Part shown: in pieces, positions 1-38,845 of the stretch
How positions within the stretch are numbered: position 1 is the stretch's first letter
Layout: each line of letters opens with the position of its first letter
Source of the DNA: Marsupella aquatica
Lineage: Eukaryota > Plantae > Marchantiophyta
Assembly: GCA_973895155.1 (NCBI GenBank)
Contig: OZ316896.1
Span: 16,657,752 to 16,721,751, forward strand
Direction: 5' to 3'
DNA length: 64,000 nt
The notes under the pieces: model-generated
What the model was told of the DNA's origin: nothing
Databases searched by the model: none
Seen by the model: only the letters and a program-made list of their open reading frames with translations
Translations under genes and position numbers: made by a program

Positions 1-138
1 AGAGATTAAAACGGTGATCACAAGCTCGTAACTCAGCTCTGTGACCACAGCAACCTTAATTAATGTAAACCTTTCCTTGCAAGAGTAAAGAACAGAAAGA
101 AATTTCACATCTCGAAACAGACAAATTTTAATCCTTAC

Positions 139-3100: not shown

Positions 3101-5222
3101 CTCCATAGTCCACGGACCCCAATAAGGGCAAGAAAGAATGCCCGGCACCTGGGAATGGCACTCTTAAGTCCTACTGCCTTTCCTTCGAGTATTGCCCGGT
3201 GTGAAACAATCACATTACTTTCCCAGTGTGTTCTTATTCATGACGAGACAATTAGTTAAGAGGCACACCTTGGGTATGGAAAAGTGAATATCCAGTTTGC
3301 GGCGACGCAGAGGCTTGTTCTGAAGCGCCCGCATTGCACTGCGTGCCGCCCGGATGTCATAATATGAAATCATGACAAATCCACGATGCTTACAGGCTGT
3401 GTAAAGCGTTCGGATAGCACCATATTGCTGCATCAAAATTCATCAATCAAAGAGAGAGCTGTAAGATTCCAAGCCAGACAGAAATAGTGTGTGACCTGTC
3501 GACAATTCAGCCCCTTCCCGCACTAATCCCGCTCGACAACGCTGATTCTAAGGAGAGCAAGGAATTAGCTACAGAAGCTGTGTAAAGCTTTCGGAACGAC
3601 AACCAAATCTCTCTTCGACCTGATAAGGGAGCAAAAATGACCAATTCTTCAGCAAAACAGCTTTTGTCTGCTCGGAGAAGTAACCTGCAGTTCAGCTCTC
3701 AGGCATGAAGGGCAAATTAAGAACATTGATCAGCTGCCTTCTTAGCGTACTGTTTTATGGAGACCATTGGTCTGATTTGCAACGACCGACTTTGGTGGTC
3801 TTTGCAAATTGTTGTAAGGTTAGTTCTATGTGGCGATAGGACTATCTAATTTATTTATCAGAGGCTGAACGGTTCAAGTACTACTTAAAGAAGTGATGTC
3901 ATGAGTCATCGAGTGACATCACTTCTATAAGTAGTACATCGAGTCCACTACATTGGGTGCACATATAGGAAAATTAATCAGTGGAAGCCTATTCTATCAG
4001 GCTTCTTAGGTTTACAGATGTAAGTTAAGGTCTATCTATTACCTCAAAGAGCGCACGAAGTTCTGTATCCTCCACGTTGCTATTTATATTACGAACAAAA
4101 AGTGTTCTCGAAGGATGCTCGCCATAAGGATGTTCACCAGCAACAGACCCAGCGGCACTTGATCCAGCATGACCTCCAGAGCCTCCCACCAAAACATCCA
4201 GAGTTCGGTGGGTATTCAAGATAGCATTGAGGGCATCCTGAGGATCACTTTCCAGCTCCATGCCACCGCCACTGCTGAAAAGATCGGTATCATCCCCTTC
4301 CTCAATATTTGTAGATGGGTAATCATAATCTCCATTTACACCAGCTAGTAACTCTTCCTCATCATCAGGAAGGAGATTGCCTATTGTATGCGACTCGATA
4401 TCTTCTATTGAGTCAAAAGGCTCCTCTCCTTCAAGGTCCCCATTTAAGTGCGATCCAGTTGTGTCAATTGAGTGGCTAACGCCATCCGGATTGGAGAGCC
4501 TCACTGCAAGACAACAAAACGTAACGACTAGCTCTATGAGAGTAGCACAACTCGAACAACAGCAAATTTTAAGGTTCAAATCGATCCGTGAAGAGAAATA
4601 CACTCCCATTATCACAATTTTGCAACCGTATCAAATTATTTAAGTTACTCAACATCACAGAAGGAAGTCAGAAAGGCTGTCACGTACGAACATTATCAAA
4701 TTCGCACCACAGTAAGAAGCCTTTACTTAAGCAATTTATACTGGCTGGTACTGGCAGCAAGGCCAGATATCAGGCATTAACAGCCAATTGGTTCTTCTGA
4801 GCTAGCATATTGCATTTTCGCAAAAACCTGGTGTGCAAATGGGCCGCTCTACTTACAACTGTTTTGGAAAAGGGCTGGAAAGGAGCTTGAAAATCCCCTT
4901 GTATCGCCATCTCCAAAGCCCGAATCCAGCTTTTCATGTCCCCCATTGACACGCGGGGACGACGACAACGGATTTGAATTTCTCAAGCCTGCAATGTTGT
5001 CGCTGGAACTATTCCAAGTATATGATGACAGGCTGGTTCTCCTCTCGGAACCGACAGCCCATTGATCACCACTGCCCTTCCCTTGGTGATGCCTGGACCA
5101 GTCCTGGGTGCTTGAAGACCAATCACCATGAGATGGATTAGCTTGCTCGGACGGCCCATTGCCATGATTGTGCATTCCTCTACTTGATGACTCCATTGAG
5201 TGCAAGTCCTCTAAACCATACC
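139..5222 (-). CDS. AML: MEI2-like (AML) RNA-binding protein, 3 RRMs; multi-exon, 3' end lies beyond the window start. Exons read: 5222-4857, 4503-4043, 3427-3269, 2638-2522, 2368-2217, 1840-1749, 1458-1006, 799-139
   Basis: Family motifs GEHPYGEHPSRTLFVRNINSNVED (RRM1), YGAIRTLYTACKHRGFVMISYYDIRAA, NQGTLVVFNLD and IRETPHKRHHKFIEFYDVRAAEAAL (RRM2), SLMQQLSQELEQEE, and YQLDLDRIMRGEDSRTTLMIKNIPNK (start of RRM3). The GT-AG boundaries give in-phase joins. Confidence 0.95.
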
Positions 5223-11636: not shown

Positions 11637-14600
11637 CTAATCCAAAGGGACCGCTTCCCCTTCCCCGGTTCCGGAAGTCCCTGTCGTCAATTCTGGAACA
11701 ATTGTGGCATCGTCAACCACGCTATCCTCTCCGGCCTGAGGAATGTCTTCCTCACTCTCCTCATCCATCTCCCCCTGTCCGTCTTCCTCTTCAATGTTAT
11801 CTGCAAGGTTAAGAATCCTCCCTTTCAACACACTGCTCTGTCGCTCGTCAATCTCAATGGCAACGCAATGTCTCCCCATGGCCAAGGAGGAGGTTGTCCC
11901 AGTCCCTGATCCTGAACAAATATCCAAAACCCAGTCTCCAACCTGACTAAAATGACTCACTTCCCAATCTAACAATGCACGTGGTTTCTGATAAACATTC
12001 ACTGCCTTGTTATCCCCGTTGTGTTTCAGCTTCTTAGTCACAGCTGCGCATACAACCACATTGTTCCTTGATTCATTTGTGTCAAAATTGAAGTGCTCCA
12101 ATGACCGTTTACCATCCTGGCTGTGAAAGCCAATTGTAAAGCACTCAAAGTTGCTGTTCAATCTTGGTCCACCAGCATTCTTCACATTATCCTTAACCCT
12201 GAAAAGTCACAAAAAGTCAAGGAGTTATTTAAACTGAGAAACATGGTTCATGAAATCATGAATAACTAATAGTTGTTTTTTTCAAAAACAAATATTTCTT
12301 ACCACACACAATTCTGGAACCCTCCATTACACTCCGCTTTCAAAACGGTCTTGATGGCCTCATATTGGTCAAGGCTGTGGTGAATGATAATACGCCACAA
12401 CTTTGCAGTAGTAGCCACCTTGAACGATTGGACCATTTTTGTGATCTCCTCAGTTCCCCATCCAATAGTGTCTTCATGAAGACATCCAGGCAATGCAAAC
12501 CTATAGGGAATATCCACTAAAGCTAATGTGTAAGCCCGACCCAGAACCACCTCATGTAATCGCTGAGCATCATGAGTAAAAATATCATAGTGCACATCAC
12601 CAAACTCTGGATGCTCAAACGAATTTGGATGAAGTTCCCCCTCTTGGGTTTGCCGACTAGAAGTCTTCATGGATAGCCAATTTTGGGCTTGCACAATATG
12701 CGCATTGAATTTGTCCGGGAATGACTTGAGATCTTTGCCTTCCTCATCTCCCTTCTTTTTCCGGGAGGTGGTATCTTTCTACAAAAAGGAACTGTAGAAT
12801 TAGAAACAAGGATTCCAAATATTAAATGAATTCAAACAATCATTCGAAGAAAGGTGACAGAATCTTACCCATGTCTGGAAAACAGGTACGAAATTCTTAA
12901 GCACATTGTCTGTGCAATGCTCAGGGTACTTGGTTTTACAACCTGACCAACTCTCCTCGTGTAGACACGTGAGGAAGGCCTTCTGCACCTGCATCTGAAA
13001 TTTGTGTCGAGTAAATTCGTGACCCATTTCCTGTAAAGAGAGTTCTTTAGTAAGAACTCTCTGTAACACTGGGCAAATCATATCAGGATCTTTCAAGGCC
13101 TGCATGTGTCTCCACTCTGTTAATTTCATGTCCTCATAAGGCAATTTGGCATCTCCAGACTTAGAGACTTTCTTCTTGCCTTTGTCTCCTTTTTGACCTT
13201 TGATCTCACACATCTCCCACTTGTCACAAATCTGCCTCACAAATGACCACACAGGATCTTGTCGGAATGCCAACTGAAATAGGTTATCATTGGCATTAAG
13301 AACCTCAGCATCCTTTCGTACACCCCAATCCTTGAGATTGATTTCAGTAGCACACTCTTTCTTGAAATCCTGGTTGGACGACAATCCATTCTCAACAAAT
13401 CTCATGTGAATATAATTTACTCTCTGGATTGTCGTCATCTGTTGTCGAAATTCAGAATCAATATTGTGACTCCACGCAAGGTTTCTTGCCTCTTGCACAC
13501 TCAATCCCGCAAATATCCAAGATTGCACTCTCCGAAATGCCTTGTTGTTAGGGAACTGAAGAGCAAGGTCTGCTTTGGCACAGGCTGAATGGTTGCCCCC
13601 AATCACATAATAATGGTAATCAGCTTTCCTTGAAAAATCAAAGTCTTGCCTAGTAGCACACTCCTTCGGATCCACCAAGAGGACAAACGGAGCTGCAAGT
13701 GGACTGGCACCTACAGTCTTCATCCGCAAGGTCAATTGGGTCAAGAAATATGGTTGGATGTGTCGGACCTGGTAAATGGGCAAGCCCACAGCCTTCTCTC
13801 TCACTGGAGGGTAAAGTTGACCAATGTCAACGGTCACGGTCTCCTCTTGAACACCACATCTTCCCAGAATCTCCTCCTGGTACAATACCCGTGCATCCAT
13901 TGACATTGATTGAGCCTTTTGCTCCAAATGCGTTGGAATTTTCTCCAAAGTCTTCTTTTTTGACTTTGTAGCACTGGGCTCGGTAGGCTCAGGAGTCATA
14001 GCAGGTCGCTTCTTTGAAGAAATGCGAGTTCCAGTCGTACCTTGTGCCGACCCACCAGTCAAAGCCGTTCCCTGGGATGATCTGCCAACTTGAGATCCCC
14101 CTCCAGATGCTGCTGCTTCCCGGGAGGTTGTAGGCGCTACCACGGTCAAAATATCATTGGGTAAAATGCTAGGCCTCGATCCAGAAGGAACACCGGAAGC
14201 CCCAGATTTGGGTGGACGACTTACTCCCTTCTCTGCCGACCTTCTCCGGAGAATCTCTCTTGATTTTTGGATTGCACTCTTTAAAGTGCTAGCGTGAAAT
14301 TCAAACACAAAACCGGAAATCTTTCCCGCGACGTCGTGGTAACGTTCCTCACTCGAAAGAGACTTGACAGTCTCAATGATGCTATCGATGTCCTCATCGA
14401 GATAGCAGGTGGCAGCCGTTCCAGAAAACCTCTCCACATCCACGACAATCAAAGTTGAAGTTTCCTTCGTTGTGATCAACATGTTCACAACTTCGTCGCC
14501 CCGTCGAAATACATCGATGCGGCCGTAATTTACCCACCCTAATGCCCCCGATGGAAGCCCCTCAAATACACACAGCATTAGGAAGGGCTTCTTCCATGTT

Positions 14601-14692
14601 TCTGTCCCTAAGGAAATCGTCCAGGATGAGTTGTGGAAGTCTGTCAAAGGATGGCGCGAAAAGATGTCATCCACCAGCTCTTCCTGCGACAT
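11637..14692 (-). CDS. ParB/Srx-like domain fused to a beta-class amino (N6-adenine or N4-cytosine) DNA methyltransferase. Exons 14692-12869, 12778-12303, 12198-11637; 953 aa with no stops or frameshifts after splicing
   Basis: Motif IV-like LALVDIPY precedes CVWVK, YQKPRALLDW, motif I GDWVLDICSGSGTG and motif II GRHCVAIEID (beta-class order). Exon 1 has ParB-like PFVLLV...YYVIGGNHSACA...SVQEARNLAWSHN. Both GT-AG introns splice in frame. Confidence 0.85.
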
Positions 14693-15448
14693 TGTTATGT
14701 TTTTGCCTGATCTTCAAACCTGAGAACATACCACAAAATCAGTCCACTTCAACCCCAACCTGCGAGACAAAGTGCCACAGAACCAAGGAATGTGCCAACA
14801 AATGGCTACTAAAACCGTGTCCTTACGGATCTAACAATGCTCTCGGCCACCCCAGGACTCCTATCATGAATTCATGAAGGGAGTCTCCCTCTCGCTCCGA
14901 CCTTCTTTGCTTGTACACCTCGGTGATGCAGAAGGGTATTTAAAATAGGGTTCGGAGGGGGGTGACGTGAAGAAATCACCCAGGGCCTAAATTACTACCT
15001 AAAACAGGGTCGAAATGAAGTGCGACCGCGACAACTCGCGACACGTCGCCGATGAGTGCTGAAAATGGCACGAAATTGGACAACGAGATTGTTTTTCACT
15101 CTTTTACAAAGGAAATCCAAATGACATTGAGTGAAAATGAATGGGCTGCCCCGTGTTCCTTGGTTATACATACTAATCACGGATCAGGCGCGACTTAGTA
15201 AAATTAACCCAGAATCATGATAAATCAATGTTTTTGGGCCAATTATTCATGAATATTTCGGGGTATTAACGGGAAAAAGCTTGCAAATTTCATGAATATT
15301 TGATATTTTTGAAGTTAAAAAGTCCCAACAATCCGTGAAAAACTATAAATAGGCTCGTTTATTCATGACTCTTGGTCATTATTTTGAGAAGATTTGTTAG
15401 ATTTTACTGATTTTCTGAGTTTCTTGTCAATTTGCACTAGTTTTTCCA
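14693..15448. promoter_or_regulatory. Putative bidirectional promoter between methyltransferase and transposase
   Basis: TATA-like CTATAAATA at ~15343 (+) and an AT box at ~14937-14947 (-). Six TCATGA palindromes lie at 14864, 14872, 15215, 15247, 15290 and 15363. Confidence 0.5.
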
Positions 15449-18400
15449 ATGGCGGCGTGTTACGAATCAGATGATTATTCAGATGGAGTTTCTGATGATG
15501 TTTCATTGCCGGATGGCCCCTGCACAGTGGTTGGCCCAGATATCCCTGGAATAACTACTGTTTTAGATATGCCACCCCCACCCCTATGAGCAAGTTAAAA
15601 CGTAGTCCTTTACGACTTGCAATTAGTGGGAAGAAATCATTGGTCGGTGGTAAAGAGAGGTCAAGGAGCTCCTCTGACTCCTTGGAGAGTATTGGTCCAC
15701 CTGGACGTCAAGTTGTATCTCCTTTGTCACCAACAAAGGACAAATTGGGGAGTAATCTGGAAGGTTCAATGCCTATTTGGATGTCTGGGAAACGGTCTCA
15801 TGAATTCATGAAGACTGGATTTGGAAAGACGAAGAAGGCACTAAGTGGGGAAAATGACAGAGATTTTTGCAGTCTCCAAAGTGTTCAGCGGCTGAAGCAA
15901 ATGCCAAAAAGTAAAACCTTTGGTAAGCCACCATCGGAAACATTTCACAGGGGGATGAGGGAAGAAACTAGACGACCAGTGTTATTGAAAAGTATTCCAG
16001 AAAAGAATTCTAATGTGCGTTCCTCAGTTTTACCTAGGAGTCATGGTGTTGGGGCAGGGAGCGGATCAAGTCACGGAAACTCAAACAGGGAAACCAACCT
16101 GGTGGAGAGGGACCCTAGGAAAATATTGAAAGGGTCCCTACACGGTAATGGAGGGATTTCTGAAATACGCCCAGGTATTCCAAGGGTGCATAGAGTGAAG
16201 GAAGAGCCTCCATCTCCGAAGGCTGCAGGTCTGGAATCTAGGCATGTTCAGAAGCAAAAGTTGGTGACCATTTCATCATCGAATGAAAGCGAGTCTTCGG
16301 AGAGTGGGGAGGATGATGATGTTCCGGTGGCATCTAGTCGTTACAAACGTACGAGCAACGCCACTTTGTGTGAAACAAAGTTGAAAGAGGAGGATATCAA
16401 GAAAACAAATAGTAAGTACTGTTGTCAGAGTCATTGTCTCCTAAGTCTATCTCCAAAAGAAATTTGTGAGGCGCGTTCTAAATTTTTGAGGCAGAAATCT
16501 CAGGATCGATCTTTATCTTTGCAGTGGCTTATAAAGCGAGACGGAAATGAAGGAGGGAGGCAGACTATATCTTACACGTTTGGTCAAAAGAGTATTTGTC
16601 GGAAAGCTTTCAAGCTTATATTTTGCGTTGGCAATCATAGATTAAATAGAATTTTGAAATTAGACAACCAAGACTTAGGATATTCTAAACCAGTTGGACG
16701 CCCTCCATCTGTTAAAAGATTAGTCTTGGTCAGTTGGCTTAGGTCATTTTTTGAGACACGCGTGGAAACATTGCCAAATAAAGAAGTTTTACATTTACCG
16801 GATAATTATTCAAAGCTGGAGGTATGGAAGATCTACGACTCCAACTATGCCAAGATTGATGAATCTTCAAAAATATCCTATCGACAATTCTTGAAAGTTT
16901 GGGTTCAAGAATTTGGTCATGTGAAGATTCCTCCAGTCAATCGATTCAGTGCTTGCGCGGATTGCGAGGAGTTCAAATCAATTCGGGACAAAGCTGTCTC
17001 GGAGACCGAAAAGAGTAAGTTACTTACAAGTTTGACAAGTTTTTGTTTCAAGAATATGGCTTAACACATGATTTCTAATTTTTTTTGAAGAAACTAACAA
17101 GTTGTTTTTCCAGGGCGAGGGGAAATTATGTTAAAAAAACATAGAGACCAACAATCCAAAGAACGTGAGAAACTCGCAAAGCATCGTAAGAAATGTTTTT
17201 CAAATTCTGATAAATATTTGGGAGTTGTCATTGATGGGATGGATCAGAAGAAGACAAGGTTGCCTCATTGGCCGCGGCCCCCAAAATCGGTGGACGAAAC
17301 ATGTTTGATCCAAATGCACGTTGTCGGATGCCTGGTTTTCAATGGTGCACTATTTTCAAGAGTGTTTCTTAATTATCCTGTATTGCATAATGATGGAAAC
17401 TTGACAGTCACAATCCTGCAAAGGGTGTTTCACGAATGGGAAGAAAAGCCTAGTGGCTTGCCGCCTGTTCTCTATCTTCAACTTGATAATACCAGTAGAG
17501 AAAATAAAAATAATTTACTCTTTGCCTATCTTCATATGTTGATTCGAAGAAAGGTTTTTCGGAAAATCAAACTAGGATTCTTGTTGGTTGGACACACACA
17601 CGACCAAATAGATCAAATGTTCAGTCGATTTTCTAAACGACTAGCAAGGTTTAAGGCATTCACATACGAAAGCCTATGTGATATTATTTGTGAATCATAT
17701 CAACCCCAACCAAATATCACTCTTTTAAAGGAAACATATGATTTCCGTCAATATGCCTTCTCAGATCCACCTTTAGTCATTGAAAGGATTCGAAATGTTA
17801 CCTTCCACCACCAGTACAAATTTGCATTTGACAAGTTGGAAAATCAAGTTCCAACCCAATGGGGGAAGAAGTTTTCCACGGACTCAACTTGGAAACCTGA
17901 CGGAGGCGTGAAATTTTTGAGGGAAGAGGAGCCAGAAAAGGTGATGGGTTGTGCTCCCGGATTACCCCTTTTCAAAAAGGGGGATAAGAACGTTACAAGG
18001 ACTCAACCAAATATGTCTAGTTCTTCAAGAATGACTTTGAAGGAGATGGATGATTCGTTAAATGAGATTCAAAAGGGAATACTTGCAGTTGAAACTTTAT
18101 TCTCAGAAGAGGAAGTGAACTGGTGGAGAATGTTTTTTGAAGAGCAACGAGAATTGAATAAATCTTTGCTCCTTGATCAAAGACCATTGATTTTCCCTTT
18201 TCAATGGCCACGCTCCCAAAGGGAGATTGCTGTTGCTGCTGAAGTTCCCAGAGTCCTTGTCAATGTAAATTGAAGAGAGAGTATACAGACCTACCAGAGA
18301 TATATACGTGGGTCCTTATCGGAATCAAGGAAAGATAGATGCAGAGAAGGAGAATATGGAAGGAGACTTTTCGGATCTTGAAGTCAACACTTATATTTCT

Positions 18401-18841
18401 GTTGCTGGAGAAGAATCGGAAACATTTTGGGTGGCCAAGGTGGAAAGAATTGACCAGCGCGACGAGTTCAACATTCCAAAAATGATTTATGTTTTATGGC
18501 ATGCTACAAAAACCGGGTCAGATCCTTGGAAAGCCAAGTACTTACCAGAAGTCTTAAACTACGAAAAGAAGAAAAGTGGTCGTGGGAAAGGAACTTTGAA
18601 ACCAATATGGTTTCACCAAGAGCTTGATTTATCTTCAACGACTGTTTTTGCTTACAACTTCATGTTGACAAAATCTGATACATTGTACAAAAAGACAGCA
18701 GATCGAATCAAAATCCAATTGACTGAATTTTTGGCAGAAGAGAAAGAGCAAGAACAAGAGAATGGATCAACTAGAACCCCGCTAGGAGATAAATCTAGGG
18801 ATATTTCGTTTCAAGAATTGAGGACTTCTGGATCTGAGTAA
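15449..18841 (+). CDS. Sola-like (DDD, RNase H fold) transposase with a C-terminal beta-barrel domain. Intron 17015-17113; apparent 1-bp frameshifts near 15580 and 18270
   Basis: Cys motifs CCQSHC and FSACADC, and catalytic-like IDGMDQKK, LYLQLDNTSRENKN and FLLVGHTHDQIDQMFS. The intron joins ORFs 15586 and 17128 in frame (EK-R-RGEIML). The superfamily name rests on recalled motifs only. Confidence 0.72.
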
Positions 18842-20283: not shown

Positions 20284-20520
20284 CTAGCTCAATATCGGTG
20301 TGTTGCACAAAGATTTTGTGAAGAAAATAGATGTTGTATCGTCTAAAAACTTGTTAAGGAAAAAAAATGTTGCTAACAAAAAGATGTTGTGTCGCCCAAG
20401 ATGTTGTTAAGAAAAAAAGATGTTATATCGCCCAAGATGTTGTTAAGTTAAAAGATGTCGTGTCACCTAAGATGTCGTAAAGAAAAAAAGGGGTGGTGTC
20501 GCCCAAGATACAATCTTTAA
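20284..20520 (-). mobile_element. Non-autonomous Helitron-like 3' end with a degenerate ~30-bp minisatellite (copy 1)
   Basis: Plus strand A|CTAG-ctcaatat-CGGTGTGTTGCACA is the reverse complement of a hairpin followed by CTAG. It is followed by repeats of AAGATGTTGTGTCGCCCAAGATG. Confidence 0.55.
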
Positions 20521-20755
20521 AAAAAATGATGATGTGTATGATGGTTTTTTTCATTTCATTAAAATTCAAAGAATATAAGTAGAAGATATACTTTGGTGAC
20601 ACTTTTATTGTCCTAAGTGCTATTTCTTTGGTAGTAGGGGCTAGTTGTGATTAATATTTATAACATTTTATTATTACACATTACATACTATGCCAACTAC
20701 CAGCATTACTTGCTCATGAAGGATCTCCCTTCTCAACTATATACTTGATTCCCTT

Positions 20756-27453: not shown

Positions 27454-27834
27454 TAGCGGAATTGGACAGCATCAATCAAGGATCAAATCTATTAGAAAAA
27501 TTGACTCAAATTCCCAGCTTAGTTAGGTTGGCCTTACCCAGGGTTAGTTAACCCTCGATTGCTTTAGGAGAACTCAGATTCACTTATTTAGGCCCACACA
27601 TCCCATATCCCATAGGGGGGATAGGTTGGAAGAACATCTTTCTCTTCCTCATTTTCATATGTAATCTTTCATGTTATAGATGCTTCATGAGTCTTTTCAT
27701 TGTGGTGTCTTGTTAGTTTTGAGTGAGATTGAGTGCACACTCATGTTTTGCACTGTGTTGTCTAGTAAGTGCGCTTTCATCAACCTAGACAAAATTTCTC
27801 AATCATGTTGTCCAATTTTTGCCAGATAAAGATG

Positions 27835-28187
27835 TGTCATGCCGAGGGACAGTGCCGCTTGTGCACATCGGCATGTCCCTCGCATGCCCGCTAGGTATGG
27901 TTAGGGCTAGTGTACTACTTGAGTTAGTGTCATGTTCTTGTAGCGAGTCTGGGCTGTTCTTGAGGTTTGTTAGTGTGACGCCTGGACCCGGTCCTACTTA
28001 GGGCATGTTTTTCTTTGCTGTTCTTCAGTTCTTCTTGAATCGCTGTGAGACAGAGTTTTTCAGAGGCTGCTCGTCGATTCCGTACACGGAATTCACACAG
28101 TGATTCGTTAGATGCTCCCGGCCGATCTTGGCATCTCGCCGGTTTTCGATTCGATTTCAGTACGTTTGTTTCTATCACGCCTTTTAT
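27835..28187 (+). repeat. Terminal repeat A1 (353 bp)
   Basis: Direct repeat of 36998-37350; begins TGTCATGCCGAGGG. Confidence 0.95.
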
Positions 28188-28200
28188 TCAAGAAGAACTG
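28186..28200 (+). other. Putative self-priming primer-binding site
   Basis: ATTCAAGAAGAACTG sits at the 3' edge of A1 and is the exact reverse complement of CAGTTCTTCTTGAAT at 28026-28040. No tRNA-type TGG... PBS is present. Confidence 0.6.
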
Positions 28201-29442
28201 CCGAGTTAGCGGTGAGGAGAAGAAGTTTGCTCGTGGCAATTTCGACAATTTCTGGTGAAGCCATTGCAATTTCTTCGATGGACATTGGAGTGACGAGTTA
28301 AAAGTTATGGGTTTATTGTGGTGTTATGTGTATACTTAAGTGTATACACATAACAAGGGACCCGGATTTTTATTTTCTGGCCGCAACTTGTTTCGCGACT
28401 TGCTGTTGTCGACTGCTGCATCGACGCCGACTTCAAAGGGCACACCCACGCTCGTGTTTTTAACGACCTCTTTGGGGCCCTTTTTCGTTTACCGGCCACT
28501 ACTGCCTCGGCCACCGCGCGCCCCTTTTCTTTCGCCCTTTTTCGCCTTGCCAATCCTCGAAGTTCCTCCCTCCGTTTGTTTTCCTGCCTTTTCTTCTCTC
28601 GGTATCTCGCAGGCTGTGCGCATAGGGCATCGTGCCCTCCCACTGGCAGCATTTAATTAACGAGAGGAGGGGGAGCGAGTGCAAGCCGGGAGGAGGAGGC
28701 ACAGAGGCTACGAAGCATTAAAGGGGGGGGAGTACATTCGACTCCCTCTCTCGGGACTCCTGCCAAGCACGAGGCCTAACTTACAGGGCATTAAAGGAGG
28801 GGAGGGGAGGGGAGTTCAATTCGAACTCCCTCACACGGTGACACAGGAGTCTTTTTGCAGGGCACGAAGCCCATCCAACAGCATTAAGGAGGGGGACGCA
28901 ACAGGAGGGCACGAGGCCCTATGAGGAATTAAAGAGGGGGGGAGTACTCGCGACTCCTCTCTCGGGAGTCACTCGCTGCCAGGGCACAAGGCCCAAAAGG
29001 GGGATAGGGGGAGCTCATAGTGGGGCACGAAGCCCTATGCAGGGCCCGAGCCATTAAGTTGTCACCTCGCCTCAGCCTCGCCTCGCCTCGCCTCGCCCTG
29101 CAGCATAGGGTACGGTGCCTCCCGAGTGTGCGTACACCTGCTTCTTTCCGGCCTCTTTTTCTTCCAGGGAGCCCGACGATGTATCCACATTGGGCACCGA
29201 CCGGTGCCCTTTATGTGTATACACAGACCCCTGTCTATACACATAACGGAGGCCCCTTTTGACCATTTCCTCTTGTTTTCTTTCCATTCATTTTCTTGTG
29301 AGCATATTTTTGGCAGGGCCGGTCTACACATTTCTGCCTCACAGTGTTGTTTCCTTTGTGGGTTACATTTCATAGCCTTGGGGTTGCCACACCTTTTTCT
29401 TGTCAGTTTCTTTCCTATTGGCACCCCGGGTGAGCATGCAGC

Positions 29443-32120
29443 ATGTCAGCAGAGGAGCCGAGTCGTAGCAGCTCATCGCCACCGACACCCCGGTACCACT
29501 TACGGAGTGATCCACGACCGTTGGTGCCAATTTCATTGGAGTCTCGGCAATTTCGACGACGTCCACAGACAGCAGCAGCACACACACCACGCAATCCTCC
29601 TGCTACATTTGGCGGTCGCTTCACCACTACTCCGAAGCCTGCTATCACTTCATTGCCATTTACCCCTTCTACATCCGTGGTTGTTCCTGCTTCACCGACA
29701 TACAGCATGGATGCCAGCCACTCATCTGGCCGCATTGAACGCTTCAGCGGGCGGCCAGGCACTGTTTCTTTACGTGAGTTCAAATCCACTTTCTACACTG
29801 TTGTTTACGAATTGGAGTTGAAGTACGGCAGCAATTTCACAAATGCTTTTGTATTTAAGCAGCTAGCCAGGTATGTGCACCACGAGGCTTTGGATGTGTA
29901 TGAGCAGCACTCTCAACGGCTGCTTGCTGTCACACAATTGCCTAACCCTGCCTATGCCAGTGCAATTGCGGCTGCCTCACAATTGACATTACAGAATGCC
30001 ATTGCAGCCCATGCTGCTGCTCCTGCCACTTCCCCTCCTACTCCAGTTCCTACCACTGCGCCAGTTACTCCCACTATCTTGGCACAGGCTACATCAGGCA
30101 TTTCTCCCACCATTGATTCCCCTGCCTTTGTTGATCCAGTGGCTGAGTTTTTCCAGGTTCTTGAATTGGGATTCCCAATCAAGAGTGCTGACAAAATCAT
30201 GCAGTTGGCGACCTTTGTGAGGCAGCGTGATGAAACCTTGAAGATGATGTATCGTCGGCTTCTTAAGCTAAAGGAGGACACCCAGAGCATCACTGACTTG
30301 GAAGCTGCTCATCGCTATCTTCGCGCATTGGAGGGCACACCAGCTCTCCATTCACAAGTGTTGCAGCAAGTATTCTCAGAGTTTGGAGAGAGCTACACAT
30401 TGCTCAATGTCTACGACACTGCTGAGAAACTTGAGTTGGCCCATGCACATTATGAGGCCAGTATTGCGCATCCACCGCGATCTAGGTACCAGGCTGCTGC
30501 TCCTACAATGGCCACCCCTTCCCGTGTGCCACAGTATGCTTCCAAGACCAAACCAGCACATGCTGCTTTCATGCTGCCCTCTTGCAACTACTGTGGCAAT
30601 CCTAATCACAAGGCTAATGAATGTGATATTGTTGCTGAGGACCTGTCTTGTGATTTTTGTGGGAAAGTGGGCCACTTGGAGGCAGTTTGTTTTGCCAAAT
30701 TCCCAGAGAGGAAGCAGCTACAACAACAGGCCACTCATCCTACTCCTGTTTCCACTCCCCCACCAGCTAGGAGGGCTCCTACTGCATCAGTTGCTCCTCC
30801 TTCTAGTGGCAAAGCAACTAGTGCCAACAAATTGCCCAAGCAGCCACAGAAGCCCCCAGCTCAGAAGGAGGCTCACAACGCACAGGCAACTCAACTCCAG
30901 TCTCTGACTCATGAGGTTGAGTCCTTACGTGCCCAACTTGCCAACATCAAAGGCAAGTCCACTGCCTCTGCTGGTCCTTCTCAACCGGCTGGTCACGTGC
31001 AACCCATCCCTGGCCCAGGCACCGCTGACAGTTCAGCACCTCTACCCCGCTCTTTCTATGGTTTACCATTTGATGCTCATATGGGTGAGTGTGTGCTGTC
31101 CTCTGCTCCACAGCCTGGCCTTACAACAGAATTTTCAGATTCATTCTGCCCTTCATATTTTGCTTACCAGCAGGCCAGTGTTGCCTCCCGTATTGCTCCC
31201 ACACGCCGCATTGTACAGGCTGATGGTCTTGCTGCCGGTCCTATGACTAGAGCCAGGGGAGCTCGGGCTATCATGCCCCAATCTTTTCAGCCACTCACAC
31301 TTGCTGAAGAGCGCACCTTGTTGGCGAGGGGGGAGGGAGCTGCAGCTACATCCATTCCACCACCAAGTGCTGCTGACATTTCACAGGGAGTTGTTTCTCC
31401 TGAGCTGCTTGAGCATTTCACCTCCGGTATGGCACAAAGGATTCTTACAACTCCACTTTTCAGTTGCCATGATTTACAGCTGGATGCTAGAGCTGTCCTC
31501 AGGGCGCTAGAGGGTTCACTGCATTCTTCATCAGCCCCTGTGACACCGGTTTTGGAGGTCCAATCTCATGTACATACTGGACCTTCTTCTTCTCCTTTAC
31601 ATGTTTCCACTGGTTTGGCTGCCCCAGTACCGATTGCTGCTGATTGTGTGACCAGAGCTACACTTGATTCTGGTCATGCTGCTCCATCTTTCCTGGCTAT
31701 GTTGTTGAGTGGAAAGACCGTGGACACTAACTCCCTTCACAAGGTACCTCATCATTTGCCGAGAGTGGTGCCTAGTGACAGGACTTCAGTTTCCACCACC
31801 ATTGCCATTGTTGACAACAGGAATTCAGTGGTCAAGTTGGAGGGTCACACTCCTCAGGTGGTCATGCTAGACACAGGTGCTCAACCAGTGATATTGGGCA
31901 TTCAGTTTGCCAAGAAGATGGGACTGCTGACTGATCATTTACAGCAATCCAAGTGGCACATTCGGACTGCTAGTGGCACTGTGGAGGATGTGCTGGGTGA
32001 GAGTTTACTTTACTCACTCTCACTTTTAATGGAGGTACAGATCAGGAACTGCATTTCCCAGTCAGATGTCTGGTTACCAATGCCACTACGTATGATGTGC
32101 TCATTGGCCAGGAGGCTTTG
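29443..32120 (+). CDS. Gag (two CCHC zinc knuckles) plus aspartic protease; frameshift near 32010
   Basis: CNYCGNPNHKANEC, CDFCGKVGHLEAVC and VMLDTGAQPVILG. The protease C-terminal YDVLIG continues in the 32097 frame. Confidence 0.9.
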
Positions 32121-32529
32121 TTCCCACCAGGTTTTACCATTGACAACTGGCATGAGCATGCATACTACAGAGTTGATTGGCATACTGATGGCTCACACTT
32201 GGGCTATATTCCACTTGATTTGCATGGTGCCCATACACCTATGGCTCACCACTGTGTGTTGAAAGCAGTGCACACAGCTACCTATGTCAACCACCCATTG
32301 CAAGATTGGATTGTGGAGGATGACGATGAGGTGGCTGCTGCACATGCTGCTGCATGTATAGCAGCACTTTCCAGCAACGTGGATCATCAACCAGAGGTGG
32401 TACAACGGCTCCAAGCAGCCCATGGACCTTTGGTGGCTACATTGCGCAAGTTTGAAGACCTTGGGCAGCACAATGGACAGCCAATAGCCCCAATCTTGAG
32501 CGCACCAGTTACATGGACTCCTGCTCCGG

Positions 32530-33475
32530 ATGGCCTTACATTGCTTGAGCTTTTTGGTGGCATTTCTACAGGCCTGGAAGCTCTCCTACAGTCTGGCATG
32601 GTGATGAAGCAGTACATCTATGTGGATATTGATCCAGGTGCAAGGCAAGTGGCTGAATCCCGTCTGCTGGAATTTTCAGAGCGATTTCCTCAGCAGTTTC
32701 CACACAGTGCAAGGAAGTCTACATTTTCTTTCTTTCCTTCAGATATCCAGCTTGTCCAGCACCGGCACTTAACCCTTCTTGGCTCCCTTGATTTGATCAT
32801 AGCTGGTTGGGAATGCCAAGGGTTTTCAGCTGCTGGTCACGGTGCTGGACTGCATGATTCTCGTTCTGGCCTTTTCACAGCATTGGTTCAGATTCTCACC
32901 TGGGCTCAATCCCTTTATCCTGCTGTTGGTTATATCATTGAGAATACTCCATCTCAGTTTGACCAGCGACCACAGGTCAAAGAGGATTTCAGTGTGGTCC
33001 AGCACTACTTGGGACCACCCCTTCTCATTGATGCAGTGCACTGTGGTTCTTATGCACATCGTCTTCGTAACTTTTGGACTAACCTTGCACCACCTTCCTT
33101 GTTGGAGTTAGCTCTTCACCACACATCCAGGGACACTAACCTCACAGTGGACCAGATTTTGGATCCTGACAGTTCTTGCCAACCAGTTACACGGCAAGAG
33201 CCAGCACCTTGGTATCCAGCCAATACCATTGGACAGCCCCGTGCTGCTTGGCCTACATTGTGTCCTTTCCAGGTGCACATGCTTTTCAGGGTGATGGTCC
33301 TGGCCTGGTTTACCGACATTCTACCGGTACATGGGATGAACCTAGTCCTGAGGAGAGAGAACGGGCTATGGGCTTCCAATCTAGTACTACAGGTCACACC
33401 CAGATCACCAGGCTGGCCAGGAATGCTTTACTTGGCAGGGTAATGGATCTCAATGCTCTCACTTGGCTTCTGGTC
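32530..33475 (+). CDS. DNMT3-like C5-cytosine methyltransferase domain inside pol, between PR and RT; 1-bp frameshift near 33260
   Basis: Motif I LLELFGGI, II YVDID, III DI, IV DLIIAGWECQGFS, VI YIIEN and VIII AHRLRNFWTNL. Motifs IX-X ERERAMGF...ITRLARNALLGRVMDLNALTWL lie in the 33176 frame and resemble the DNMT3A C-terminus. Confidence 0.9.
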
Positions 33476-33589
33476 ACTTGCATCCTTTTTCAGATGTCCA
33501 TTCCTCCAGCATCAGGAGTTCCAGTTCTACCACTCCATGGTGCACTTACCTTTGTCCAACACTCACCACTTCAGTCCCAGTGTTGGGGG

Positions 33590-35147
33590 GGAGGAGGTCC
33601 CTTGTAATGTGGCTGACATTATTTCTGAGTTTCATGGTGTGGATCAGACCAGAGCAACAGATACAGCAGGCCTTGGAGAGGCCTCATCACTTTATCAGCA
33701 GCATGCTAGCAGCTTGGACAGTGGAGAGGCTAGCACTTCTGGCTCTTCAAGCACGAGTACATCAGGTCCTATTCCTAGTGTTGCGAACTACACATTTATC
33801 ATGGGCAACCACTTGAGTAAAAGACAGAAGGACCAGCTGCTGAATTTGCTCCTCAAGCATGAGAACGTGTTTGCTTTCTCTATGAAGGACTTGGGTAAGT
33901 GCAAGACTATGCAGTTCTCCATTGAGTTGGCTGATGAAACACCTATCTTCAGGCGAAGACACCGTTTGAGTAAGCATGAGTGGCAGTTGGTGGATGAGAG
34001 GTGCCAAGAGCTCTATGAAGCTGGTCTTATTCAGCCATCTACATCAGATTTTGCAGCAGCTACAATGATGCCTGCAAAGAAGGATTCCAGTGGATTGTGG
34101 ACAGAGAAGCGCATGTGTGGGGACTACAGGCCACTAAACCTGGTCACACCCCAGGACAGGTACCCCATGCCACGGCCAGAGGAGCTATTTGATAGCATTG
34201 GAGACTCAGACATCTTCACTCTTGTGAATCTAAGGCAAGGCTTTAACCAGATTTTGCTGCTTGCAAAGGTCCGCAAGAAAACAGTTTTCCATGGTAGTAA
34301 CCAACTATGGGAGTGGTTGGTGATGCCATTTGGCTTGAAGAATGCGCCCATATTCTTTCAAAGAGTCATGGACCAGGTTCTTCAAGGTGCTGAGTTTCTG
34401 AAATGCTACATTGATGATGTGTTGGTCCACAGCAAAGGATTTGACCAGCATCTACTTGACCTTGAGGAGCTATTCATGAGGCTTAAGAAGGTGAACCTAA
34501 AGATACACCCCAAGAAGTGTGAATTTGCTGTCAGATCAGTAGTATATCTTGGGCATCGCATTCTTCCAAATGGAACCATGGCTCACTGGGCCAAGGTGGT
34601 ATCCATCTTGGAAATGCCCACTCCTACCGATGTTCACACTTTGAGGAGTTTTATTGGGTTGTGCAATTACTACCGAATCTACATCAAAGATTTCAGTACC
34701 ATTGCACACCCATTGTATGCTTTGTTGAAAAAGAATGTGACTTGGACATGGAGTACAGATGCTGAGGCAGCATTTGCCACTTTGAAGGAGAAGCTCTCAG
34801 AATACCCGGTGTTGAGAAGACCTGATTTCAGCAAGGTCTTTGTGTTACACACAGATTGGAGTGCCCTTGGGATTGGTGCCATTCTGGGCCAGCATGATGA
34901 GGAAGGTAAAGAGTACGTCATTGCCTATGCATCCAGGAGCAACAATCAGGCAGAGAGTCATTATTCTTCTTATGAGGGTGAATGCCTTGCTGTTGTGTGG
35001 GCTGTCATACATTATAGGCCCTACCTCTATGGGACCAGGTTTGTTCTCTACACCGACCACCAGCCCTTGAAGTGGTTGATGACCAACGACAAGCTTACTG
35101 GCAAGCTTGCTCGTTGGGCGCTCATACTCCAGGAGTATGATTTTTAG
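33590..35147 (+). CDS. Reverse transcriptase and RNase H (first RT Asp reads Asn; TAG at 35145 probably from CAG)
   Basis: KRMCGDYRPLN, MPFGLKNAP, YIDD, HPKKCEF, LHTDWS, EGECLAVVWA and YTDHQPL. Confidence 0.95.
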
Positions 35148-36780
35148 GTAATTCATAGGCCTGGTGTGACACATCAGAATGCTGACACTATGTCCCGCAG
35201 CCCTTTGATTACCTCTGATGATTCCTCAGATGCACGGCAAGATTTTGACCAGGCTTCCATCCTGCCTACATTTCATGCATCGACCTATCTTGCTTTGCTG
35301 CCATGCTATGTTGTTGACCAACCTATGGTGGACATATGGGAGGACAGCGACACTCTGAGATTTCTGCTGCATGGGGAGTACCCCTCACATGTTACTGCTG
35401 CCCAGAGAGACCGAATTCAGCAAAGGTCCAAGCGCTACTTGTGGAAGGGAGATCATCTCGTGCGTTGCTTGCCAGACAGGGAAGTGGTGGTTCCACCTAT
35501 TCATGAGAGGGTTGGCCTTATCCGTAAGGTACATTCTGAGCTTGGTCATTTTGGTGTTAAGAGGACTTACAGCCTCTTGGTCCCTCATTATCATTGGAGA
35601 GGCATGCATGGCCAGGTTCGAGATGTTATTGCCCGGTGTGAACAGTGTGATAGGGTGAGGACTTCCTTCACATCTCGACAACCCACACTTCATCCACTCC
35701 CTATTCAGGGCATGTTTTATCGCTGGTCATATGATTTGGCTGGAGAATTACCCCTCACGTCTCGGGGTAATCTCTACATCATGATCATGATAGAGCATTT
35801 CTCCAAGTGGATAGAACTTGTGGCATTGCCGGATAAGACCTCCCATAGCACCAGCCAGGCATTCCTACAACAAGTTCTCAGCCGCTTTGGAGCTTGTGCA
35901 GAATGTCTCACTGACCAGGGCTCAGAGTTTAGAGGAGAGTTCCAGGAGCTGCTTGATCAGGCCCTCATTGATCATCGCCGGACATCACGAGATCACCCAC
36001 AGGCAGATGGCTTGGCAGAGCGCATGGTTCAGACATGCAAGAAGGGCCTTCGGAAGATCTGCCTCACCAAAAACAAGGAGGATTGGGACCTGGCCTTACC
36101 CTACATTGCCATGGGGTATAGGATGTCCAGACATGCATCACTGTCTAACTTTTCTCCCTACTTCTTGTTGTTTGGTCGTCACCCAGTTCCACCTTCTGCT
36201 ATTGCTTCTCACATGTTTCAGGTGGTGGACTTGGATTCAGCTGTGACTTGGTCTGATGTGATCTCTGAGAGGGCTGCCCCTATTCAGGAGGGTTATGCCC
36301 ATGGCCATGGAGAATTTGGCCATTGCACAGCACAGGGACACACTGCGTTATGCACACACACGAGGGGGCACTTTTCAGCCCAAGGTCAGGAAGTTTGAAG
36401 TGGGAGATTTTGTGTACTTGCAGCGGCAAGCTAACGACACCCTGGACACCTCTACCAGTCGCACTATTCTGAGGGTCAAAGCTATTCGACCGTCTGGAGT
36501 GCTAGAGTTACAAGGGGCAGATGGGCGCACAATTGCTGACAATGCCAAGAATTGCGCCCCTTGTCATCTGCCTAACCTGGATCCCACCATTGTGACTTCT
36601 ACTTGGATTCCACCTGTGGACTACCCTTGCAAAGTGTGTTTGCGAATTGATGATGCTGACCAGATGCTGCTGTGTGACAATTGTAATGGAGGGTACCATC
36701 TTTTCTGCCTTCGGCCTGAACTTACCCAGGTGCCAGAAGGGTTATGGTTTTGCCCTTCCTGTGCTCCACGTGCTATCTGA
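35148..36780 (+). CDS. DDE integrase (HHCC plus core) with a C-terminal PHD finger; frameshift near 36280
   Basis: HSELGH...CEQC, WSYDLAG, LTDQGSEF and QADGLAER. The PHD reads CKVC...MLLCDNCNGGYHLFC...VPEGLWFCPSC (C4HC3). Confidence 0.93.
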
Positions 36781-36812
36781 CTTTTCTTTAGCCCTCCTTT
36801 TGGCTGTGGTCT

Positions 36813-36820
36813 GGGGGGGA
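36813..36820 (+). other. Polypurine tract (G7A) immediately before repeat B1
   Basis: CT-GGGGGGG-ATACAGAGG, ~30 bp after the pol stop and abutting the start of B. Confidence 0.7.
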
Positions 36821-37526
36821 TACAGAGGTTTACACCTCCACTACGTACATACCACCTCAGTTGCTTTTTCTTGGCACCTGTGAATGTGATTGGACTTTTT
36901 CTATGCATGTTGGTTGCTAGCAGCTTGCACATATGCATTGCCGGTGACTTGTATGTTTTCGATACACTATGGCTACGATACTATATGTCACGACAGCTGT
37001 CATGCCGAGGGACAGTGCCGCTTGTGCACATCGGCATGTCCCTCGCATGCCCGCTAGGTATGGTTAGGGCTAGTGTACTACTTGAGTTAGTGTCATGTTC
37101 TTGTAACGAGTCTGGGCTATTCTTGAGGTTTGTTAGTGTGACGCCTGGACCCGGTCCTACTTAGGGCATGTTTTTCTTTGCCGTTCTTCAGTTCTTCTTG
37201 AATCGCTGTGAGACAGAGTTTTTCAGAGGCTGCTCGTCGATTCCGTACACGGAATTCACACAGTGATTCGTTAGATGCTCCCGGCCGATCTTGGCATCTC
37301 GCCGGTTTTCGATTCGATTTCAGTACGTTTGTTTCTATCACGCCTTTTATATACAGAGGTTTACACCTCCACTACGTACATACCACCTCAGTTGCTTTTT
37401 CTTGGCACCTGTGAATGTGATTGGACTTTTTCTATGCATGTTGGTTGCTAGCAGCTTGCACATATGCATTGCCGGTGACTTGTATGTTTTCGATACACTA
37501 TGGCTACGATACTATATGTCACGGCA
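36820..37526 (+). repeat. Right-end repeat block B1-gc-A2-B2
   Basis: B1 36820-36995, spacer GC 36996-36997, A2 36998-37350, B2 37351-37526. The B1/A2 junction is the palindrome GACAGCTGTC. Confidence 0.95.
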
Positions 37527-37844
37527 GATGTTGTCCAAGAGTATTTTGATTCCCTTCCATTCCCTATGTCTTTCATGAGGGTTTTTTTTGGGTTAGTTTT
37601 ATTTCAAGTTGATTCTTCTCAATTTTTGGCTCAAAGTGTTGTTGGAGAAGTTTGTGCTTGTTATGTGACTCCAAGCCAGATTCCTAGTGTATTGCATGCT
37701 CGGTTCTTCCTATCTTACTTGGTGTGATTCCTTCCATGAGCTCACTTGCCTCCATCTAGAAATTGTTAGGTGAAGGTATCATGAGCTCATGCCTTCATAC
37801 TGAGGTCACCACATGGGTGGGTATATGCCTTGCATTCTATTCTA

Positions 37845-38100
37845 CGAGCTCAATACCCGTGCGTTGCACAAAAGAAGTCGTGTCGGCCAAGATGTCGTTG
37901 AGAAAAAAAAGAAGTCGTGTAAGCCAAGAGGTCGTGGAGAGAAAAAATGACGTGTCGGCCAAGAGGTGGTTGAGAGAAAAAAAGTCGTTGAGAAAAAAAG
38001 ATGTCATGTTGGCCAAGAGGTCGTTGAAAAAAACTTGTCATGTCGGCCAAGATGTCGTTGAAAAAAAATGTCGTGTCGGCAAAGATATCATTGAGAGAAA
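37845..38100 (-). mobile_element. Non-autonomous Helitron-like 3' end with minisatellite (copy 2, same family as 20284)
   Basis: A-CGAG-CTCAATACCCGTGCGTTGCACA followed by repeats of TGTCGGCCAAGATGTCGTTGAGAAAAAA. Confidence 0.55.
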
Positions 38101-38845
38101 AATAGAATTATTTATATATGAATAGATTTATATAAAATTTGATTAATTTTTTCATTGTGGCAGGTATGGGAAGGTTAAAGGGTAGTTTGGGCATTTTTAA
38201 AAGGGGTGTATGGATAGATCTAACAGTGTGGAAAAAATTATGTTTTAATAAACATTCAAGATTGATTGTCACTTTTTTTAGTTTGTAAAGGGGCTGGATC
38301 AAGATTATAGTGGTACATGGTAAAAGGAGGTCTCCATGATACTCTTGCATTGCTAGAGACCCTCCTTATTTTCTTTGTACTATTAAATTCATTTTGTGCT
38401 TGGAAACATTGCTCTCCATTTTCATTCACAAAAGATATCATTCTTTCATGTTTTTCATTTTTGGGATATTGCAAATTTGAATGACTACTATCATTATTAT
38501 ATTTTTCAATATTATAATACTTGTAATAATATATAGTATCATATATATTATGTACTTTTGTATTTCATGTGTATACCTCCTTGATACTCATGCATGTACA
38601 TTCATTCTCTTGTTTTGTGTGCCCCATTGGTTCTAGCATTGGCTCCCTATTTTTGTGTCTCCCATTTGATTCCCCGTTTGTTTGGAATGTATTTATTATC
38701 TTTCGGTGCACACTAAATTTAATACAACCTTTATTCCTTCTCTTTGACATGATTAATATTTTTTAGACACTCTAAATTTGAATGATGACCACTTCATAGA
38801 AAGGCGCAACCTTGTATTATAATTTAGGATGTTCACTGTTTAGGT

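Follow-up and report, generated by a model that had tools for sequence, protein, structure and literature searches.

A Ty3/Gypsy-type retrotransposon with a DNMT3-like methylase, a PHD finger and permuted terminal repeats in the liverwort Marsupella aquatica, and a candidate circle-based route of integration

The stretch of DNA analysed here (the window) comprises 64,000 nucleotides of contig OZ316896.1 from the liverwort Marsupella aquatica (assembly GCA_973895155.1, positions 16,657,752 to 16,721,751 of the forward strand). Positions 27835-37526 of the window hold a 9.7 kb Ty3/Gypsy-type element that ends in TG...CA and encodes, in order, Gag, protease (PR), a DNMT3-like cytosine methyltransferase, reverse transcriptase (RT), RNase H (RH), integrase (IN) and a PHD finger (Table 1). 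A first-pass annotation of this DNA described the segment from methylase to PHD, which is only the inner part of the element, and did not mention its most striking trait, the permutation of its long terminal repeats (LTRs). Two repeat units, A and B, occur in the order A-internal-B-GC-A-B, which corresponds to the layout that a two-LTR circle would have if it were opened inside one LTR.

Table 1 Features of the element, with positions in the window.
Feature	Position	Strand	Remarks
Left target-site duplication	27831..27834	+	4 bp GATG, same as 37527-37530
Repeat A1	27835..28187	+	353 bp, starts TG, 3 differences from A2; right part of permuted LTR
Predicted transcript start and self-primer	28026..28040	+	15-nt perfect complement of 28186-28200
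Predicted primer-binding site, self-priming type	28186..28200	+	Lacks tRNA-type TGG
Gag region, two CCHC knuckles (30583, 30649)	29707..30693	+	Weak zf-CCHC match, E 0.013
Aspartic protease, LDTGA at 31867	31822..32170 (end approximate)	+	PF13975 E 3.4e-5, under curated cut-off
DNMT3-like C5 cytosine methyltransferase, GWECQ at 32805	32505..33496	+	PF00145 E 9.5e-7
Reverse transcriptase, YIDD at 34407	33900..34600	+	PF00078 E 6.8e-26
RNase H	34824..35144	+	PF17917 E 1.2e-38; then stop at 35145-35147
DDE integrase: HHCC finger, core with D, D, E, C-terminal beta-barrel	35493..36560	+	PF17921, PF00665
C4HC3 PHD finger	36628..36762	+	PF00628 E 1.4e-12
Polypurine tract G7	36813..36819	+	Immediately 5' of B1
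Repeat B1	36820..36995	+	176 bp, ends CA, 1 difference from B2; left part of permuted LTR
2-nt spacer of internal head-to-head integrase site CA-GC-TG	36996..36997	+	Self-comparison
Repeat A2	36998..37350	+	Self-comparison
Repeat B2	37351..37526	+	Ends CA; A2/B2 join is the predicted circle junction
Right target-site duplication	37527..37530	+	GATG

The insertion is real, was made with a 4-bp duplication and is polymorphic among samples. In each of the public sequencing runs X1 and X4, one contig shows the empty site, running from 27829 straight to 37526 with the target present once, while a contig of run X2 crosses the left junction of the filled site. Together with the like layout in other genomes, these contigs rule out a sequencing or assembly artefact. 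A1/A2 plus B1/B2 differ at 4 of 529 bases, all by transitions. Since the repeats differ so little and two public runs contain an empty-site allele, we regard the insertion as young, as the first-pass annotation had it, with the term referring to the age of this insertion. Contigs of the public runs cover 30/30 bins of the element, DNMT bins included, in 4/4 runs; we do not take their summed depth as a copy number.

The copy itself is dead. Its frame is broken near 32005 (protease), 33257 (methylase), 33543 and 36277 (integrase); a stop at 35145-35147 directly follows RH, at a site where a related protein, P0239, is open in one frame; and the first catalytic Asp of RT is replaced by Asn at 34227. 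The earlier description of a retrotransposon polyprotein thus held for the set of domains but not for an intact frame. At three of the four frame breaks and at the RT site, contigs of the four public runs depart from the window sequence, and past 33543 they diverge, so these lesions are not common to most copies. A programmed frameshift after the DNMT was also considered for this copy and is ruled out, since P0211, P0214, P0003 and P0004 have no break there and past 33543 other copies no longer match the window.

The permuted arrangement recurs in relatives. Our survey covered 38 metagenome loci of the window's layout, many of them redundant and many 71-88% like Sphagnum P0068. A B-A-B 3' end is present in 16 related loci (about 11 distinct insertions), and of five full-length copies, the window's included, four have an exact 4-bp duplication on either side and the fifth matches at 3 of 4 letters. 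A G-rich purine run adjoins B1 in the window and in 15/15 related loci examined. The site after A1 bears no tRNA-type sequence and is perfectly complementary over 15 nt to 28026-28040, with none of 2000 shuffles reaching a match of at least 14; the 64-kb window contains no tRNA genes. This self-priming helix is the best match in 7/10 copies. Across eight aligned sequences it is 92.5% paired, compared to 40-54% when slid, with changes on both sides at 4/15 pairs. In relatives, the spacer of the internal CA-NN-TG site reads GC, GT, GA, AT or TT, and the A2/B2 join shifts by about 1 base.

Since the purine tract precedes B and the primer site follows A, linear cDNA should carry B-NN-A at both ends, and joining of the cDNA ends followed by cuts after each CA in the upstream LTR would give exactly A-internal-B-NN-A-B. 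In the proposed route, RNA would start near 28026 and fold back onto 28186-28200 to prime its own reverse transcription; given the polypurine tract, LTR biology would then yield a linear cDNA with B-GC-A at both ends; these ends would be joined, making an A|B circle; and integrase would cut the internal CA-GC-TG of the upstream LTR, leaving CA-3' ends and 2-nt overhangs. The predicted outcome (A-internal-B-GC-A-B with TG...CA ends and a 4-bp duplication) is the structure seen in the genome. From the arrangement of these sequence signals, we judge integration from an end-joined circle to be the probable route.

The main competing account is that the split repeats act in the fashion of DIRS and Ngaro elements, with an RNA spanning A1-B2 whose internal B-A templates both ends, so that an end-joined circle is unneeded. 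This layout has been described for SymbioDIRS and KnitGypsy, and such a mechanism would account for the near-uniform orientation of opening among copies. We nevertheless consider it unlikely: the polypurine tract at B1 and the primer site at A1 are the bounds of a standard LTR, B-NN-A, in the window and in relatives; six scanned frames of the element gave no tyrosine recombinase match; and the TG...CA ends and 4-bp duplication indicate a DDE integrase. Variation of the A2/B2 join among relatives also speaks against it, though slippage in the A/T run could explain it as well.

Several observations weigh against self-priming and circle integration. Covariation in the helix is modest (16/500 shuffles reach four double-change pairs), three of the four double-change pairs depend on the window row alone, and a simple longest-match search missed the primer site in 3/10 copies. 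Among the loci surveyed we saw no clean A-B-A-internal-B copy, though a symmetric circle should open at either site, which implies that opening is biased or that the route differs. The approximately 11 related insertions and the window are in the usual form, and only two copies (L005; L036/L037) end at B1, an ending that B1-B2 recombination also explains. One of these, L037:700-3760, is an internally deleted copy with a 28-bp B tail and spacer before A, in which B1 runs into unrelated DNA; it possibly represents an alternative opening of the circle.

Several features of the element and its proposed route have counterparts elsewhere. Like Tf1, Tj1 and Tcn1, the element has a predicted primer site whose complement is part of the 5' LTR and not a tRNA, but those elements have ordinary two-LTR layouts, and Tcn1 carries a chromodomain (as described in the relevant passages of PMC4600332 and PMC6317226). 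The DDE integrase of foamy virus is described as cleaving circles at the palindrome formed where two LTRs meet head to head (PMC1180852, in its account of the junction), a precedent for the proposed cut; the foamy-virus junction consists of the cDNA ends, whereas in the window element the integrase site is within the LTR and it is the cDNA ends that come to be internal. Split direct repeats in the order A-coding-B-A-B are shared with DIRS, Ngaro and PAT elements, which integrate by tyrosine recombinase, in contrast to the DDE integrase and 4-bp duplication found here. Two other groups were compared and set aside: Troyka (CG...CG ends, 3-bp duplication, animals only) is ruled out by the TG...CA ends and 4-bp duplication, and Phygy/Selgy, described in PMC6317226 as having a tRNA primer site (Trp or Ala) and no extra Pol domain, do not match.

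To place the element, relatives were gathered with the methylase segment (76 longer proteins, and 1898 clusters at E 0.001 or 184 at 1e-30, the best 150 of the 1898 being examined) and with an RT-RH search blind to the methylase (3112 proteins, the best 120 examined). Named family hosts among the matches listed are Calypogeia, Marchantia, Sphagnum, Closterium, Klebsormidium, Haematococcus, Chromochloris and Monoraphidium. In an IQ-TREE phylogeny of 53 hand-picked RT-RH rows, 38 form one clade (support 100/99) that contains the window, three K. nitens proteins (P0332, P0267, P0296), all 26 DNMT-bearing rows and 9 RT-to-PHD frames; P0345, with a weak PHD and no methylase, also belongs to it. Two chromodomain-bearing rows fall outside the clade in this tree, which carries no named chromovirus reference set. 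Klebsormidium nitens is the host of KnitGypsy-Dnmt3, in which a Dnmt3-like domain was reported within a Gypsy Pol (de Mendoza et al. 2018; PMC5890265, in the passages on that element). From these placements, membership of the element in the KnitGypsy-Dnmt3 lineage is close to certain, and the range of the lineage is widened by sequence matches to liverworts, Sphagnum, Closterium and chlorophytes.

The family has two layouts: PR-DNMT-RT-RH-IN-PHD (layout I, including the window) and RT-RH-DNMT-IN-PHD (layout II). Layout II forms a single group of 11 rows (93/73) inside the 38-row clade, so the DNMT appears to have moved within Pol, with the deeper branching left unresolved by the tree. The layout II proteins (P0008, P0021, P0038, P0325 and others, those of Haematococcus, Chromochloris and Monoraphidium included) have a tail of 145-324 residues. 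Reading frames of relatives differ in extent: Calypogeia P0211 encodes Gag through RT in a single frame, with a methylase 78% identical to that of the window; in P0214 the methylase is likewise in-frame within a Gypsy Pol; P0283 runs from protease through PHD in a single frame; and in P0010-P0015 the frame stops after Gag-PR-DNMT, before RT. The window's Gag region is 72-73% identical to the N-termini of P0211 and P0002. Its RT-RH-IN segment is 82-85% identical to P0239 and the Sphagnum-like P0004 and only 45% identical to the Marchantia element P0297, a contrast that reflects either coexisting old lineages or transfer between moss and liverwort (dS is saturated).

The first-pass annotation implied that the pairing of DNMT and PHD is particular to this land-plant element. 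Among the 88 methylase-bearing proteins in which the integrase core is complete and followed by at least 190 residues, however, 82 also have a PHD, algal ones included. Moreover, the PHD-bearing P0314 adjoins Klebsormidium P0332 on the tree with very short branches. These two observations indicate that the pairing is old and family-wide, and on the sequences compared here the methylase and PHD mark the element as a member of a known lineage, not a land-plant novelty.

The methylase lies between the protease motif (31867) and RT (33900-34600), as initially described, and its PF00145 match is above the curated cut-off. Its motifs (I LELFGG at 32544, II YVDID at 32619, IV GWECQ at 32805, VI IIEN at 32934, VIII AHRLR at 33054, IX at 33353 and X at 33428; numbering that we take to be the standard one) run in unpermuted order from 32544 to 33445. 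A 40-row family profile ranked DNMT3A first among solved structures (96 bits), followed by DNMT3C/B (83-82), DRM (49-60) and M.HhaI (41). The intact Calypogeia domain, modelled with a mean confidence (pLDDT) of 95.7, has a TM score of 0.71 to DNMT3A/B; comparison with the ESM Atlas confirmed a C5-methylase. The unpermuted motifs and the nearness of DNMT3 among solved methylases, in both profile and model, indicate that the domain is DNMT3-like, in agreement with the first-pass call. We found no prokaryotic or viral donor: none of 48 GTDB candidates was a relative (the query being tuned to close relatives only), and IMG/VR scans returned only phage-type methylases with at most 47% identity over short stretches (best E 4e-10). 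Distant donors may exist.

Motif IV of the window retains the catalytic Cys but has Glu in place of the preceding Pro, a substitution that the first-pass annotation had pointed out as a departure from the usual Pro. After dropping 10 near-duplicates and domains of unknown layout, we compared 147 methylase domains. Glu precedes the Cys in 91 of them and Pro in 33, while the position holds another residue or could not be parsed in the remaining 23 (D, S, A and C are among the residues seen); Glu-Cys is therefore the majority state of the family and no oddity. The remainder of the catalytic site is highly conserved: all 147 domains have the motif VI Glu, 145 have the Cys, and 146 and 144 have the two Args of motif VIII; the SAM-binding Gly is nearly invariant. 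Parsimony on a weakly supported tree with phage outgroups only gave about 12 interchanges between E and P, which suggests that the position tolerates change. A loop with Glu-Cys in most of the family offers a probe of how far the Pro-Cys motif of C5 methylases can vary.

The methylase is under purifying selection, with dN/dS near 0.1. Codon-pair (NG86) comparisons of the window with 14 loci, three of them not computable, gave 0.08-0.12 for 11/14 (dS 2.2-2.9, near saturation), and two other loci, L001 and L002, gave 0.09 at a dS of 1.09. Among old moss-type copies the ratio rises to 0.34-0.48, similar to RT and IN, as expected after decay. Among the outcomes that the first-pass annotation had named as undermining it were absence of the methylase from other copies and neutral decay within them, and neither was found: in a larger FastTree phylogeny (127 of 158 rows, 31 layout-II rows being thinned out) based on the methylase-blind search, the methylase is present in 17/17 layout-I clade rows with at least 250 residues upstream of RT. 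A one-off capture of a host fragment, now decaying, would fit the broken domain of this copy and its private differences in the methylase, whose split of 4 synonymous to 6 non-synonymous looks neutral. By contrast, the differences that segregate between copies of the host-related runs are 19 synonymous to 9 non-synonymous, compared to an expected 24% synonymous (38 differences split by hand; 40 of 65 shown, 2 outside the methylase). This distribution and the recurrence of the DNMT across the family refute the capture reading.

Sequence composition bears on whether the enzyme is active. The observed/expected ratio of CG at codon positions 3|1 is 0.18 in the element's coding region, compared to 0.64 for transposon-like DNA nearby and 0.50 for the exons of MEI2, while CWG is not depleted. 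Such strong CG erosion without CWG loss fits long CG-specific methylation. Host methylases could equally have caused the loss, however, and repeat A is spared (observed/expected 1.02); further points against an active enzyme are that the window domain has Glu where the Pro-Cys motif of the DNMT3 family has Pro, and that the K. nitens DNMT gave no methylation in yeast, a result its authors call inconclusive and in which the DNMT3B control was inactive as well (PMC5890265, in its account of the assay). The last two points, along with the Glu in 91/147 domains and the presence of D, S, A and C at the same position, could indicate an enzyme with little or no methylase activity, retained to bind DNA or flip bases while the element is reverse-transcribed or its circle is handled. 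This seems unlikely to us given the nearly invariant catalytic Cys, Glu, Args and SAM-binding Gly, the repeated E/P interchange and the CG erosion of the coding region. From conservation and modelling, we lean towards an active self-methylase in the family, in which case active members would likely methylate CG sites of their own cDNA.

The PHD closes the reading frame, after the integrase core and a beta-barrel segment that precedes it in the predicted model (pLDDT 75). Both Pfam and structure comparison found no chromodomain at the integrase C-terminus, where the PHD takes its place as the first-pass annotation had noted; the two profiles it had named, PF00145 and PF00628, both matched. The solved PHDs nearest to the family finger are those of CHD4, WSTF, KDM5 PHD1, ATXR5 and BAZ2A/B, several of them with unmodified H3. 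The full C4HC3 pattern occurs in 96/117 family fingers, and in none of the 96 does a Trp stand two positions ahead of the His ligand, the residue there being Gly in 87, Ala in 4, Pro in 4 and Lys in 1; we take this to be the position of the cage Trp in readers of trimethylated histone H3 lysine 4 (H3K4). The window PHD also has DDAD ahead of the second Cys pair, matched by eye; an acidic patch of PHD fingers is described as mutually exclusive with the cage Trp in the part of PMC5415848 concerned with it. By likeness, then, the finger resembles readers of unmethylated H3K4, and by analogy its most likely role is to tether integrase to nucleosomes whose H3K4 is unmethylated, at a distance from active promoters. 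Active members would be predicted to dock their integrase in this manner.

The first-pass annotation envisaged reader and writer as one unit. Host DNMT3 is coupled to a reader of unmethylated H3K4, and DNMT and PHD share a frame in P0283, P0280 and most layout-II proteins, as joint action on host chromatin at the insertion site would suggest. Pol is normally cut by the protease, however, and the DNMT is found at two positions in Pol, whereas the PHD keeps its place next to the integrase. Since the PHD is at the integrase C-terminus in both layouts and the DNMT-carrying frame ends before RT in several relatives (P0010-P0015), the PHD probably serves the integrase and not the methylase, and we regard a joint reader-writer function as improbable.

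Our element most resembles KnitGypsy-Dnmt3, with which it shares a Dnmt3-like domain in a Gypsy Pol, A-coding-B-A-B repeats, purifying selection and an RT-RH clade; K. nitens P0332 has the same order, PR-DNMT-RT-RH-IN. The Fig. 4c legend of PMC5890265 describes DIRS-like repeats with Gypsy domains in the Klebsormidium element. The window element differs in its land-plant host and in having GWECQ instead of GWPCQ, and the present analysis documents in it a PHD, a polypurine tract, a self-priming site, a duplicated target and an empty site. 'PHD' occurs 0 times in the main text and three supplements of PMC5890265, though its figures or main supplementary PDF may show a PHD or motif IV.

EpiLTRs, as outlined in a preprint (bioRxiv 10.64898/2026.05.21.726589), are likewise LTR elements with a cytosine methylase and a chromatin reader, but they combine a DNMT4-sister enzyme with a DAM adenine methylase and a chromodomain, whereas the window element has a DNMT3-like enzyme and a PHD and no DAM; membership in that group is ruled out. 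PHD fingers in algal Gypsy Pol have been published (PMC9940879, PMC6673714 and PMC8557442, in passages on these elements). In Chlamydomonas Gypsy-7a_cRei (PMC9940879) and REM1, a PHD has been proposed to steer insertion, as here; the passages of PMC9940879 on these elements mention no DNMT. Five RT relatives outside the family (P0335, P0339, P0348, P0349, P0350) combine PF05869 (Dam) with a PHD that lies between RNase H and integrase, a further pairing of a methylase with a PHD. On the RT-RH tree such PHD-before-IN proteins fall outside the family clade, and none was identified as Gypsy-7a. Our literature search, which reached few subscription papers and theses, found no DNMT3-PHD pairing, bryophyte/chlorophyte range, Glu-Cys motif or circle route.

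Taken together, we interpret the element as a dead, recent copy of the KnitGypsy-Dnmt3 lineage whose active members may self-prime, integrate from a circle, methylate their own DNA and dock by the PHD, a joint reading to which we assign a probability of roughly 55%. A broader proposal, of a green-plant-wide lineage with obligate transposition through two-LTR circles, methylation of the circle by a Glu-Cys DNMT3-like enzyme and PHD-guided landing at unmethylated H3K4, is more doubtful and we offer it only tentatively. In most retroviruses the two-LTR circle is treated as a dead end. If the circle route is correct, the family would provide an LTR retrotransposon with such a circle as productive intermediate, bearing on the long-standing question of whether circles can serve as integration substrates, and would suggest a reason for the methylase: a long-lived extrachromosomal circle may need host-like marks. 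Given a permuted LTR and an empty site on record, in a family that is young, abundant, polymorphic and recently mobile in a liverwort, this route can be tested directly, with circles, RNA ends and methylation of new copies open to direct observation. Tools that seek two flanking LTRs may miss or mis-bound such elements, and surveys of DNMT3 genes in bryophytes and algae may be counting element-borne DNMTs.

The window holds other features besides the element. A MEI2-like host gene lies at 135-4630 on the minus strand. An exon of this gene shares 92% identity with Calypogeia fissa, 77% with Marchantia paleacea and 57-58% with Sphagnum; the host thus probably falls among the leafy liverworts, consistent with the land-plant host that the first-pass annotation had supposed. 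A minus-strand frame at 11640-12206 matches N6_N4_Mtase (PF01555, E 1.6e-8), beside a 637-residue frame (12800-14713, minus strand) that has no Pfam match, and divergent plus-strand frames at 15499-18841 include one with DUF7869 (E 1.5e-51). Judging by these matches, 11640-18841 looks like a DNA transposon carrying an amino-methyltransferase, which would be a second mobile methylase in the window. Finally, a 33-37 bp repeat forms two arrays, at 20371-20524 and 37862-38101, the latter starting 330 bp to the right of the element.

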